Program-made: the position numbers and the translations under genes | Sequence record: PQ511150.1 | Origin: Escherichia phage NHEP29 | DNA length: 64,000 bases | Strand: one strand, 5' to 3' | Notes under the pieces: model-generated | Databases searched by the model: none | What the model was told of the DNA's origin: nothing | Seen by the model: the letters and a program-made list of their open reading frames with translations, nothing else | Shown here: positions 4,511 to 47,100 of the stretch, piece after piece | Layout: the number at the start of each line of letters is the position of its first letter | How positions within the stretch are numbered: the first letter of the stretch is position 1

Positions 4511-4528
4511 GGGAGACCGAAGTCTCCC
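4511..4528 (-). terminator. intrinsic terminator after gene 32 (GGGAGAC-UUCG-GUCUCCC + U-tract)
   Basis: GC stem with UUCG tetraloop 7 nt downstream of gene 32 stop, followed by UUUU on transcribed strand. Confidence 0.6.
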
Positions 4529-4534
4529 GATTTA

Positions 4535-5437
4535 TTATAGACCGGCTAACAGGTCATCGAGGTCGCCATCATCAGAGGATGAAGTAGAGCTCATGAAGTC
4601 ATCTTCAGTTTTTGCAGAACTAAAGGCTTCCATGTCTTTATCAAAATCGTCAAGGTCAGAAGCAACTTTATCTGCAACAGAAGCTGCTGCGGCTGCTGCA
4701 CCACCAAGAGCGGCAGTACCAAGAACCTTAGCGAAAGATTCATTTAATTTTTCAAAGGACTTGAACTGGTCTTTAGCCGTCAAAGTAGTAAGGTCTACCA
4801 TCTGGTCATACAGTTCTTTTTGGAATGCTTCGTCATTAATACGAGGAATTTCAGATTGACCCAAGAATTTAGATTCGTCATAGTTGCTAAAACCGGAAAC
4901 CTGCTTAGCTTTCAGAACGAAGTTAGCACCTTCAAACGGGCAAGTAACATCAACTGGAGTTTCACCCATTTCGGTATCAACTGCAATCATTGCATTGATT
5001 TTGTCCCAAATCTTTTTACCGAAACGATATTTAAATACTTTACCTTCATTATCTGGAGCTTGAGGGTCTTTAACAACCAGAATATTAGCCCAATAAGAAG
5101 TTTTACGTTTCAGTTGAGAATATTCAGTTTTGTTGGTATTGTACAGGTCATTTTTACTAATGTACTGACATACAGGACAAGAGTCATAATCACCATGTGT
5201 AGAAGAGCAATTTTCAATATACCATTTACCATTTTTCTTGAAACCGTGGTTAACAAGAATTGCAAATGGTAGTGCATCATCAGTTTTTGCTGGCAAGAAA
5301 CGAATTACCGCTTGACCATTACCGGATGCATCTAGCTTCAGCTTCCATTCGCCTTTATCTTCTGAAGAGAAACCTTTGTTACCATTCAGTTTAGCCATTT
5401 GAGCAGCGAGGTCAGCAGTAGATTTACGTTTAAACAT
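4535..5437 (-). CDS. 32: single-stranded DNA-binding protein gp32
   Basis: 300-aa [22 protein letters not shown]...; Zn-binding Cys/His region and acidic C-terminal tail; matches T4 gp32. Confidence 0.95.
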
Positions 5438-5516
5438 TATATTTACCTTTATTTAGATTATTTAATTTATTTACAGTTGGTTGCTACGACACTTATACCT
5501 CGTAGCTGGTATGATT

Positions 5517-5524
5517 TATTTATA
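5517..5524 (-). promoter_or_regulatory. candidate late promoter (TATAAATA) upstream of gene 32
   Basis: Exact TATAAATA on transcribed strand about 80 nt upstream of gene 32 start. Confidence 0.35.
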
Positions 5525-5553
5525 AAGTAATTTTAACACACAAGAAATAAAGC

Positions 5554-6207
5554 TTAATACTTACATGATTTGATTGTTTCTATGAACAATTTCTTAGCAG
5601 CATTTCCATCGATTTGAAGTATTTTTCGATATGCCTTTAATTTGGTAGAATAATTTTGCCAGACTAAGTTATCGGTAAGTTCGTCGTGCTTATCTATAAT
5701 ATTCAAGAATGAATCCAACAACAAGAAGGTTTCAAACGAAATTATATTGCTTTGTAGCAATTTAAATATGTAGCTCGACTGAACTTTATTATTATAATCA
5801 AATATCTCTTGAAGCGCACTAACTTCCACTTTCTTACTGAAATAGTAGATGTTACGCACATCTTCAGCAAACGTCTCCTTGGCTTGTTTGAGACGTCCAA
5901 TATATTCCCTATAGAAAACTAATGCATCAGCGTCTGATATCTCACCAATCCATGCATCTTGGTTAGCAACTAAGTTACTTATGAATATCAAGGTGAGTTC
6001 CTTCAATTTATATTTCTCTGCTAGTTTTTCAAAGAAATATTTATCTCGGCGTTTTTGATACGCATTATCCGAAACACGCATGCACCAGTTATATTTGATT
6101 ACGTCATACCGACCATTAAAATGTTGTTTGCACATCAAGTATAGTTTGTATACCGATTTTCCGTTAATATAACGTTCTCCGTCAGGAGGCATGCGTATTT
6201 TAATCAT
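5554..6207 (-). CDS. 59: helicase loader gp59
   Basis: 217-aa ORF MIKIRMPPDGERYINGKSVYKLYLM...; near-identical in length and sequence to T4 gp59 as recalled. Confidence 0.9.
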   Translation of the reverse strand: MIKIRMPPDGERYINGKSVYKLYLMCKQHFNGRYDVIKYNWCMRVSDNAYQKRRDKYFFEKLAEKYKLKELTLIFISNLVANQDAWIGEISDADALVFYREYIGRLKQAKETFAEDVRNIYYFSKKVEVSALQEIFDYNNKVQSSYIFKLLQSNIISFETFLLLDSFLNIIDKHDELTDNLVWQNYSTKLKAYRKILQIDGNAAKKLFIETIKSCKY

Positions 6208-6542
6208 AATAAGAAATCTAACGTATTAGTTTTTTCACCACGAGCAACTGATGGGCGAAGCATGTTTTCGTCAATTGCTTCGCTTGTAATTTTTTCAACA
6301 ATTCCTGTAGGAATAAATTTAGCAAATTGTGTTTCTGGAATAGAATTTTCTTCCAAGAAAGCAGTTGTTGCTTCTAAATAAGACATACCAAATTGCTCAA
6401 CCATGGATTCGATAATGAATCCGTTTTCTTGACGGTCAAGCAATTTAGCGATATCATCTTTATCATGTTTTACTGCTAATTCTTGTTCAGATAAACCGGT
6501 CTCATCAACCGGTTTAATATCACTTAGTGAAAACTGTGTCAT
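6204..6542 (-). CDS. 33: late transcription co-activator gp33
   Basis: 112-aa ORF; length and position between 59 and dsbA as in T4. Confidence 0.85.
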   Translation of the reverse strand: MTQFSLSDIKPVDETGLSEQELAVKHDKDDIAKLLDRQENGFIIESMVEQFGMSYLEATTAFLEENSIPETQFAKFIPTGIVEKITSEAIDENMLRPSVARGEKTNTLDFLL

Positions 6543-6789
6543 AAAGCTCGACTACCTCTTCGTTTTCAGCTTCAAATTGGTCACGAGCATCTTTATGATA
6601 AAGAGCTAACAAACGATTAAACATTTTTCCATCAACGCCAAGCTCTTCTTTAGCACGAGTACGAATGTCTTTAATCAGTTCATTATAACCAGAAATTTTA
6701 AGTTTGTTATCGGAAGCTTCCTTGACTAGTTTAGCCAGTTCTTCACCATGCACATCTTGATTAAATTCAACTGCTTCTTTCTTAGCCAT
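6520..6789 (-). CDS. dsbA: dsDNA-binding protein DsbA
   Basis: Start moved to internal ATG (MAKKEAVEF...); matches T4 DsbA as recalled. Confidence 0.8.
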   Translation of the reverse strand: MAKKEAVEFNQDVHGEELAKLVKEASDNKLKISGYNELIKDIRTRAKEELGVDGKMFNRLLALYHKDARDQFEAENEEVVELYDTVFTK

Positions 6790-6796
6790 GTTTACC

Positions 6797-45808: not shown

Positions 45809-45868
45809 TTCAATTTCCTCTGTAGTTGATAGAAAGATAGTAACACAGTATGTGGTGCTTGTAAACAG

Positions 45869-46081
45869 CTATTTTAAACTTTTGCGAAATTTTCGTTTTT
45901 CTTGACGAATCTGTCGTTTAGTCGGACGTACAGCAAATTTAACGAAGTCCACTTTGCCGTGTGGAAACTTTTCAGATGCTTCACAGTCCATCATTAGTTC
46001 CCATCCTTCCAGAATAAGAGCTTTCCATTGTGTAGTTGATGCAAATTCGTATGTTGATGGTTTAAACACAGTTGAATACAT
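45869..46081 (-). CDS. hypothetical protein (70 aa)
   Basis: Start set at internal ATG 46081. Confidence 0.4.
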   Translation of the reverse strand: MYSTVFKPSTYEFASTTQWKALILEGWELMMDCEASEKFPHGKVDFVKFAVRPTKRQIRQEKRKFRKSLK

Positions 46082-46082
46082 A

Positions 46083-46274
46083 TTATCCTCTGAAATCAGC
46101 TTCAAAAACTTTCTCGTCATTAACAAATGCTTTAACTAATGCATTGTTCACTTCAGCAAGTTGCACCGCAACCCACTCAATTTCTTCGCGATCACCTGAT
46201 AACATGATATCTTTAGTGAACATCTTACCGCTTTTAAACCAACCGATAAAAGTAACTTTAGTTAATTTGCTCAT
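46083..46274 (-). CDS. dmd: Dmd (discriminator of mRNA degradation; antitoxin-like)
   Basis: Start at ATG 46274 (MSKLTKVTFIGWFKSGKMFTKDIM…VNNALVKAFVNDEKVFEADFRG); matches T4 Dmd. Confidence 0.7.
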   Translation of the reverse strand: MSKLTKVTFIGWFKSGKMFTKDIMLSGDREEIEWVAVQLAEVNNALVKAFVNDEKVFEADFRG

Positions 46275-46588
46275 ATTTCCTCGCAAAATGCCCATTCAGC
46301 GTGATAAACTGTAGCGCCTTTAGTATCATTCATTTGAACTACATCTACCGGAGAAATTACTCGATAGAGACGTGGTTCACCTCCATAAGAGCGTGCTGCT
46401 CGTCCTGCATAAATCTTTGCTAAACCGATATCTTCAGTAAAGAATACACGATCCAAGTTTTTCTTACGTCCAGTTTCAGACAGAACTCCTGTTTCCTCAG
46501 GAGGACAAAGCATGTTTTCGATGTTAGCTGAACTACTTGAACCGTGATAAAAAATCTTAAATTCTGCTTTACAATCGATGGTTTTCAT
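46271..46588 (-). CDS. hypothetical protein (105 aa) with YHGSS motif
   Basis: ORF with SD GGAG; start overlaps dmd stop region. Confidence 0.5.
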   Translation of the reverse strand: MKTIDCKAEFKIFYHGSSSSANIENMLCPPEETGVLSETGRKKNLDRVFFTEDIGLAKIYAGRAARSYGGEPRLYRVISPVDVVQMNDTKGATVYHAEWAFCEEI

Positions 46589-46594
46589 TTTGTT

Positions 46595-46643
46595 CTCCAG
46601 TAGTTGATAGGTCTATAATAACACAACTACTGGAGAAGTAAAC
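46595..46643 (-). promoter_or_regulatory. early promoter inside a 12-bp perfect inverted repeat that contains the SD
   Basis: CTCCAGTAGTTG (46595-46606) and CAACTACTGGAG (46624-46635) flank the TATTAT -10; GTTTAC at 46638-46643 (rc). Confidence 0.5.
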
Positions 46644-47018
46644 TTAAAAACGTAATTTAGATACGTCTGCGTTGATTTCGTTTTGGTTTGCATCGTATGC
46701 AATTAAACGAACCGCTTTAGATTGGTCATTCAATGCATAGAAATGATGGAACATTGCTCGAACGATATCACCATTTACGAGTTCTACCTGGATAGGAGAA
46801 CCTTTTTCGAGTTGGAAATGTTCATAAGCTTTGATGGTTCGCAGATAATCAAGTTTTTGATTTCCGGCTCCAACAATTTGTACGATACGTTTGCCCGTGT
46901 TTTCCATACGAGATACAATAGTTTTAGGAGCAAGAATAACGTAGGTTGCCAGCGGAGAAACTACTTCAACAGTTGTGTTTTCGGTGATTGCAGTAAAAAT
47001 TGCTTGAGACATATTCAT
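46644..47018 (-). CDS. hypothetical protein (124 aa)
   Basis: ORF with SD GAGG. Confidence 0.5.
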   Translation of the reverse strand: MNMSQAIFTAITENTTVEVVSPLATYVILAPKTIVSRMENTGKRIVQIVGAGNQKLDYLRTIKAYEHFQLEKGSPIQVELVNGDIVRAMFHHFYALNDQSKAVRLIAYDANQNEINADVSKLRF

Positions 47019-47084
47019 AATGTTTTCCTCTTGGTTGGTGTAAGTACATCATATCATGTCTAGAGGAAGATGTAAACCCCGAAA

Positions 47085-47100
47085 GGAGACCGAAGTCTCC
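47085..47100 (-). terminator. UUCG-tetraloop hairpin after gene 41 (stem identical to 4511 and 12803 hairpins)
   Basis: GGAGAC-UUCG-GUCUCC; T5 tract on the plus side and UUUC on the minus side, so possibly bidirectional. Confidence 0.5.

Follow-up and report, generated by a model that had tools for sequence, protein, structure and literature searches.

How does one and the same hairpin come to stand behind three different genes of a phage genome, and what does it do there? The question is raised by a stretch of 64,000 nucleotides (nt) from Escherichia phage NHEP29 (sequence record PQ511150.1; hereafter the window), in which the exact 16-mer GGAGACTTCGGTCTCC (GGAGAC-UUCG-GUCUCC in the RNA) occurs three times, at 4512-4527 (-), 12803-12818 (+) and 47085-47100 (-), after genes 32, 35 and 41. 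None would be expected, since 100 shuffles gave 0 copies. A preliminary description of this DNA had listed the three copies, which we found again by exact match, among eight UUCG-capped hairpins near stop codons. It had taken these hairpins for transcription terminators and had ascribed the identical stems to copying rather than convergence. Our analysis indicates that the hairpins very probably belong to the intercistronic hairpins with a C(UUCG)G cap that are typical of T4-type phages, the phage in this case being an RB69-like Mosigvirus, and that the shared stem may best be described as a lineage-wide 'house' stem, not a copied cassette.

UUCG hairpins of an RB69-like phage

Every hairpin with a 4-nt loop, a stem of at least 5 base pairs (bp) and at least 3 G-C pairs was collected, with 40 dinucleotide shuffles of the sequence as control. 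The window contains 11 hairpins with a TTCG loop, compared to a shuffle mean of 0.25 and a maximum of 2, and chance as their origin is ruled out by these shuffles. No tetraloop in the window is nearly as common as TTCG and its mirror CGAA, every other loop being present in at most 3 copies. In all 11 hairpins the loop is closed by a C-G pair, giving ...C-TTCG-G... on the sense strand, and all 11 show UUCG in the sense orientation of the local genes: ten are on the minus strand with the early genes and one is on the plus strand with the tail-fibre genes. The same orientation was found for 22 of the 23 UUCG hairpins of Mosigvirus PhAPEC2 (about 98% of the genome covered). Such a strand asymmetry is expected only for selection on RNA. 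The predicted stabilities range from -9.4 to -16.5 kcal/mol (z from -1.5 to -4.4 against shuffles of short windows), in keeping with the unusual stability for which C(UUCG)G and other UNCG tetraloop hairpins are known. A search of the whole window with the Rfam families gave no match at the gathering threshold. The eight hairpins of the preliminary description were all present where it had placed them, but its list was incomplete, as three UUCG hairpins had been missed (59522-59541, 48839-48858 and 23000-23025).

Judged by nucleotide identity and gene order, the window is that of an RB69-like (Mosigvirus) T4-type phage. It is 96-98% identical to Mosigvirus PhAPEC2 (Escherichia phage vB_EcoM_PhAPEC2, KF562341) over most of its length, with 99.8% identity at the gene 35/36 junction, and a 10-kb stretch of it is 98% identical to many RB69-like coliphages. 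The T4 gene order is kept, running from nrdA.2/td by way of 32, 34-38, 52, rIIB/rIIA, 39, soc, 41, uvsX and 43 to 46.

At the orthologous sites after genes 32, 35 and 41, a hairpin is kept across T4-like genera with compensatory changes in the stem. After gene 32, it is found in nearly all enterobacterial T4-like loci and in most of the distant ones, on varied stems and with UUCG, UCCG, UACG or UUUG as the loop. Among 14 distinct gene 32 hairpins, 97% of the cells pair, a percentage that is inflated because the set was picked for the presence of a hairpin; 7 of the 8 pairs are changed on both sides, the closing C-G is invariant, and the covariation score was reached by 0 of 500 shuffles. After gene 35, the hairpin, the U-tract and the motif TATAAATA are kept in HX01, T4, Kha5h, fPS-65 and IME341, spanning four genera, with GGGAGAC, GGGACCC, GGGAGCC and GGGACC as stems. 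Phage T4 also has UUCG hairpins at the same soc (AAGGACUCC-UUCG-GGAGUCCUU), regA (AAGGGGC-UUCG-GCCCCUU) and uvsX/40 (UCCCCCUC-UUCG-GAGGGGGA) sites and upstream of gene 39 (AAAGGCC-UUCG-GGCCUUU). At the uvsX/40 site, T4 and the window differ by one compensatory pair, composed of two synonymous changes; other variants of this hairpin occur in other genera, and it is not present in 30 of 46 loci. Sequence, strand asymmetry, position, conservation and covariation of the hairpins are direct observations.

Predicted transcript ends, U-tracts and downstream promoters

Termination and 3'-end protection are functions that we infer for these hairpins from the known properties of such structures. A short stem, composed of a G/A-rich 5' arm and a C/U-rich 3' arm, closed by C-G and capped by the very stable UUCG, would form on the mRNA at or just past the stop codon. 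Where at least 4 U follow directly, as is the case after gene 32, gene 35, a 26-amino-acid (26-aa) open reading frame (ORF), rIIB, a 141-aa ORF and soc, the hairpin would act as a Rho-independent terminator, probably a leaky one. Every hairpin, with or without these U, would provide the upstream message with an exonuclease-resistant 3' end. The next transcription unit would then begin directly 3' of it, at a GTTTAC-type early promoter, a middle promoter of the MotA type, a late TATAAATA promoter or a ribosome-binding site.

Several features of the sites agree with such a role. For nine of the 11 hairpins, a stop codon is found at a distance of -2 to +6 nt and a promoter or ribosome-binding site comes next, and all eight sites of the preliminary description carry the annotation 'putative terminator determined with ARNold' in KF562341, where TTCG is found in 14 of the 27 annotated terminators. 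The regA, uvsX/40 and 52.1 hairpins have no terminator annotation in that record. The description had put all of its hairpins within a few nt of a stop codon and had stated that most of them are followed by a U-tract. Both statements stand, the extended stems of the eight sites being -2 to +6 nt from the preceding stop and the G-C core being followed immediately by a run of 4 or more U at 6 of the 8, with the correction that the hairpin assigned to the end of gene 52 belongs to another stop codon: this is the stop of the 26-aa hydrophobic ORF (21494-21574), which overlaps the end of gene 52, and the hairpin is 76 nt past the stop of gene 52 itself.

The gene 32 hairpin (4511..4528 (-); GGGAGAC-UUCG-GUCUCCC; -13.4 kcal/mol) starts 6 nt past the stop and is followed by UUUU and then by an early-promoter-like GTTTAC..TAGTAT at 4479-4451 (-). 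The gene 35 hairpin (12800..12821 (+); AAAGGAGAC-UUCG-GUCUCCUUU) overlaps the gene 35 stop and is followed by U; 5 nt past it, ahead of gene 36, is the late-promoter consensus TATAAATA at 12827-12834 (+). The same two arms make up the gene 41 hairpin (47082..47103 (-)), which lies 3 nt past the stop, has a tail of only UUU and is followed after 4 nt by the start of an early-promoter-like motif at 47077-47048 (-).

The five remaining annotated hairpins have other stems. AGGGAGC-UUCG-GCUCCCU (21478..21495 (-)) overlaps the stop of the 26-aa ORF, continues into UUUU and precedes an early-promoter-like motif at 21453-21425 (-). Five nt past the rIIB stop is GGGGAC-UUCG-GUCCCC (25343..25358 (-)), followed by UUUUUCUUU and the ribosome-binding site of the next gene, without a promoter motif. 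The gene 39 hairpin (29955..29972 (-); AAGCUCC-UUCG-GGAGCUU) overlaps the stop of the fused topoisomerase subunit gene 39/60; its tail is UUCAUUUU, and only a ribosome-binding site is found downstream. AAGGGC-UUCG-GCCCUU (31838..31853 (-)) overlaps the stop of the 141-aa ORF, a homologue of RB69ORF005c, and is followed by the MotA-box-like UUUGCUUUA, upstream of gene 39. The soc hairpin (41259..41280 (-); AAGGAAUCC-UUCG-GGAUUCCUU) lies 6 nt past the stop, with U7 directly behind it and an early-promoter-like motif at 41244-41215 (-).

As for the three hairpins that had been missed, the one at regA (59522..59541 (-); AAUGGGAC-UUCG-GUCCCAUU) is found 3 nt past the stop and upstream of gene 43 and has a weak U-tract. 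The uvsX/40 hairpin (48839..48858 (-); UCCCCUUC-UUCG-GAAGGGGA; -16.1 kcal/mol) lies 34 nt past the uvsX stop inside gene 40, where it covers the SPSSEGE codons, and is without a U-tract. The 52.1 hairpin (23000..23025 (-); -16.5 kcal/mol), in which the UUCG loop sits on a stem of 11 bp, G.U pairs among them, is located inside a 46-aa 52.1-like membrane ORF (22901-23041), whose LAGAFGLLLL codons it spans.

With regard to the promoters, the T4-type early-promoter motif GTTTAC-N15-19-TAnnnT has 20 matches in the window compared to 4.9 expected. Four of these are directly 3' of UUCG hairpins, namely those of gene 32, the 26-aa ORF, soc and gene 41, at a distance of 4-31 nt. The early-promoter-like regions after the gene 32 and 26-aa ORF hairpins, at 4451-4479 and 21425-21453 (-), have the stretch TATAGACCTATCAA in common in their -10/start region, which points to a promoter module that is repeated. 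Hairpins of a second family, (G)ATAGGnnTAT-GnTATA-GTAnnCCTAT(C), are found at 3991-4018, 23983-24010 and 24493-24518 (-). They have a -10-like TATAGT in and next to the loop, and at 24021-23992 and 24530-24501 they are within a GTTTAC..TATAGT early-promoter motif. A near-identical element of this second family is found after gene 41 in other T4-like phages (L334, L336, L337 and L354), and the family resembles the promoter-embedded stem-loops of the PeSLs discussed below.

Besides the way in which the gene 32 set was picked, a number of points weigh against regarding the hairpins simply as T4-type terminators. The gene 41, regA, uvsX/40 and 52.1 hairpins have only 0-3 leading U; the U-tract is short at gene 41 (UUU), interrupted or short at gene 39, and weak or absent at the other three. 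The uvsX/40 and 52.1 hairpins lie within ORFs. In the literature searched, we found no 3'-end or termination evidence for this phage or for T4-type phages. In addition, the shared stem, present in 6 of 23 UUCG hairpins of PhAPEC2 and in 0 of 95 randomly sampled CUUCGG+U8 viral terminators, exceeds what a generic constraint would predict. It is unlikely that the gene 41, regA, uvsX/40 and 52.1 hairpins, at the least, are efficient intrinsic terminators; they more likely act as mRNA-end or structural elements. The terminator reading of the preliminary description is supported, to the extent that sequence can show this, by the ARNold annotations, the conservation and the gene 32 covariation, and it becomes doubtful at the U-poor hairpins.

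A related explanation, to which we give a minor although not a negligible chance, is that some of the hairpins are not terminators and serve mainly as 3'-exonuclease barriers, mRNA processing boundaries or translational elements, e.g. by shielding GGAG from the phage nuclease RegB or by acting on gene 40 translation. The four U-poor hairpins fit this explanation, and so do the two that lie inside ORFs, one of which keeps its pairing between T4 and the window via synonymous changes. Moreover, direct reading shows GGAG in 6 of the 11 stems, RegB is encoded by this lineage, and GGAG within UUCG-capped terminator stems resists RegB (PMC1702504). The U-tracts at most sites and the ARNold terminator calls argue the other way, and terminator and stability or processing roles do not exclude each other. 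RegB protection can be excluded as a general reason for GGAG stems, since GGGACC, the house stem of other lineages, contains no GGAG.

One stem at several sites

The preliminary description had concluded from the identical stems that the hairpins were copied rather than convergent. Copying of the hairpin as a unit was not supported by our comparisons. Similarity was looked for in the flanks of the three identical copies, and none was found beyond the hairpin. The promoters past the three copies are spaced at 4, 5 and 31 nt, and two of them are early and one is late. At the gene 41 site, phages with 64-65% identical gene 41 protein (gp41) and the same downstream flank UUUCGGGGUUUACAUC have GGAGGC/GCCUCC instead, and a series of loci (L358, L359 and L366) leads from this stem via a G.U intermediate, GGAGGC/GUCUCC, found in one phage, to the GGAGAC/GUCUCC of the window. 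Finally, the 16-mer recurs on viral contigs, nearly always with a T-tract, in at least 120 stretches whose flanks are unrelated. Among these are other T4-like contigs, in which it follows t, rIIB, regA, gene 45 and gene 46.

Pure independent convergence, the option that had been disfavoured, is also not the whole story, as the stem occurs six to seven times genome-wide and stems match within genomes above expectation. A motif search in relatives, as proposed by the preliminary description, located the GGAGAC stem at 6 of the 23 UUCG hairpins of PhAPEC2, after genes 8, 23, 30.9, 32, 35 and 41. A seventh GGGAGAC/GUCUCCC stem of this phage has a GUU/AAC loop; it belongs to a bidirectional terminator in the interval from gene 54 to alt.-3 (KF562341 123508-123535), which is not part of the window. 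GGAGAC is not a universally preferred stem, being absent from all 95 sampled terminators, yet the 16-mer recurs as a terminator in the at least 120 unrelated stretches mentioned above. For 3 of 11 hairpins to have a stem in common, the probability is about 0.02-0.06 if stems are drawn from diverse phages and about 0.3-0.4 if they are drawn from a T4-like sample, which is not independent. Given this range, the three window copies alone prove little.

A cross-site test was carried out on IMG/VR isolate genomes with the hairpins just past the stops of genes 8, 23, 32 and 41. Stems at different sites of the same genome were identical in 25 of 102 pairs, compared to a permuted mean of 9.05 (standard deviation 2.65), and a count of 25 was not attained in any of 20000 permutations. 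When the genomes are grouped into 20 clades at 90% or more nucleotide identity of gene 23 (gp23), the excess persists. It is lost upon merging of the clades at 85% (P = 0.19), because single-linkage merging removes the most informative and uniform genomes. Most of the signal is carried by three lineages. Lineage-specific stems are seen in VR25-type phages, with GGACC at 4 of 4 sites (genes 8, 23, 32 and 41), in CC31-type phages, with GGAGCC at three sites under the loops UUCG, GCAA and UGAG, and in Mosigvirus, with GGAGAC.

A BLAST search of 50,697 phage records with hairpin probes gave a corresponding distribution. With the GGGAGAC-UUCG probe, Mosigvirus genomes were matched at 5-6 places each and Serratia CBH8 at 7. 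With GGGAGCC-UUCG, the number of places was 1 in Mosigvirus, 3 in phages of the T4 type and 5-6 in the T4-likes of Klebsiella/Raoultella, and with GGGACC-UUCG it was 2-3 in T4-type phages, compared to 5-6 in both phage 212 and Providencia PSTCR6. The house stems GGGAGAC, GGGACC and GGGAGCC are also seen at non-orthologous sites of their lineages (IMG/VR loci L243-L272, L323-L368, L378-L438 and L453-L504; KF562341). These comparisons suggest a homogenisation of stems at the level of the lineage, and we regard the uniformity of stems within a lineage as real on this basis. The stems would be drawn from a small repertoire (GGGAGAC, GGGAGCC, GGGACC, GGGCC and similar), with a tendency to uniformity in each lineage, and the three copies in the window would belong to a lineage set of six or seven GGGAGAC-type terminators.

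As a tentative hypothesis, which we hold to be possible rather than probable, the dispersed terminator stems of T4-type phages may evolve in concert in each lineage, towards GGGAGAC in Mosigvirus and the Serratia CBH8 type, towards GGGACC in VR25-type phages and towards GGGAGCC in those of the CC31 and Klebsiella types, while loops and flanks are free to change. The cause might be short-patch conversion, template switching from one palindrome to another or co-evolution with a lineage-specific factor that reads the stem, and the three stems of the window would be the visible tip of this process.

An observation on the DNA level was made at the hairpin of the 26-aa ORF. At 21478-21495, the loop on the sense strand is UUCG in the window and CGAA at the corresponding position of PhAPEC2 (KF562341 162482-162499), albeit with identical stems and flanks in a region of about 96% local identity. 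Such an inverted loop is a signature of palindrome-templated strand switching.

An alternative, in our view a rather improbable one, is that the hairpins themselves were copied, either with stems homogenised by short-patch gene conversion or template switching, or through the spread of mobile, PeSL-like regulatory cassettes. Much of the evidence for uniformity would fit this as well: the GGAGAC stem at six UUCG hairpins of PhAPEC2 and at a seventh with the GUU loop, the excess of cross-site identity that persists with the 90% gp23 clades, the uniform stems of the VR25- and CC31-type phages, and the probe matches, in which GGGAGAC prevails over GGGAGCC in Mosigvirus and the reverse is true for the Klebsiella/Raoultella T4-likes. 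In addition, PeSL studies describe stem consensus sequences that are specific to a lineage, as well as recombination events within the stem-loop (PMC4122927, PMC2839356), and the inverted loop at 21478-21495 shows template switching of DNA on these palindromes. The unrelated flanks and the variable promoter spacing speak against copied hairpins, the late promoter after one copy means that the unit is not a PeSL, and the sites have orthologues in several genera, among which the stems change one compensatory step at a time. The permutation signal comes mainly from three lineages and is gone after merging at 85% gp23 identity, and GAGAC is among the three commonest cores in T4-likes generally. 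Furthermore, one stem occurs with several loops in a single genome (UUCG, GCAA, UGAG, CAUG and GUU). This combination of one stem with different loops speaks against a conversion of entire hairpins and favours a constraint on the stem or conversion of the arms.

That the elements are DNA-level palindromes, i.e. protein-binding or recombination sites, or chance inverted repeats is highly improbable, since, even though they are perfect DNA palindromes with a 4-nt spacer and the loop inversion is a DNA-level event at one site, UUCG is on the sense strand in 11 of 11 hairpins in the window and 22 of 23 in PhAPEC2, G.U pairs are tolerated, and the enrichment over shuffles is about 40-fold.

Comparison with known systems

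C(UUCG)G hairpins were described for the intercistronic regions of T4 by Tuerk et al. (1988, PNAS 85:1364), as related in PMC8948821 and PMC2811024. The hairpins of the window resemble them in the UUCG loop with the closing C-G, the short G-C-rich stem, the intergenic location near stop codons and the high abundance. The differences are that the window represents another genus, Mosigvirus, and has other stems, and that the hairpin after gene 32 has a CUAGA pentaloop in T4, where a UUCG hairpin after gene 41 is absent. Nolan et al. (2006, PMC1524935) predicted terminators at the gene 35/36 boundary and downstream of gene 23 in 6 of 6 T4-like genomes including RB69, and downstream of gene 32 in 5 of 6. 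These predictions and those in KF562341, where all eight listed sites are found, concern the same positions as the hairpins of the window; they give positions only, and neither the loop type nor the shared stem is discussed. In view of the earlier T4 description and the KF562341 annotations, the hairpin family is already known and the eight listed sites are already annotated. The family is textbook T4 biology, and the transcription-unit boundaries of this Mosigvirus follow the T4 plan. If any part is new, it is only the uniformity of the stem among unrelated sites of one lineage. If a stem-reading factor were its cause, this would point to a new RNA-protein interaction.

PeSLs (promoter-early stem-loops) of T4-type phages, units of a stem-loop, a sigma-70-like early promoter, a ribosome-binding site and a start codon, have lineage-specific stem consensus sequences, and their copies have been proposed, and in part demonstrated, to recombine with each other (Arbiol et al. 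2010, PMC2839356; Comeau et al. 2014, PMC4122927). The window has in common with them the lineage-specific stem consensus and a stem-loop directly upstream of a putative sigma-70-like early promoter, as seen for gene 32, the 26-aa ORF, soc and gene 41. An early-promoter-like motif accompanies these four hairpins; gene 35 has a late promoter, and rIIB and gene 39 have a ribosome-binding site only. PeSLs are conserved over about 100 bp and are clustered around ORFans in hyperplastic regions, whereas identity among the three identical hairpins is limited to 16-22 nt, their sites are after core genes (32, 35 and 41), the promoter spacing is variable and one promoter is late; neither conservation over about 100 bp nor variable ORFans are found at these three. 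The sites of the window thus fall outside the definition of PeSLs, but the PeSL idea is the nearest published idea to lineage-specific stems. If conversion between palindromes of 20 nt were true, it would extend this idea from the hyperplastic regions to the terminators of core genes and provide a simple system for the concerted evolution of regulatory RNA structures.

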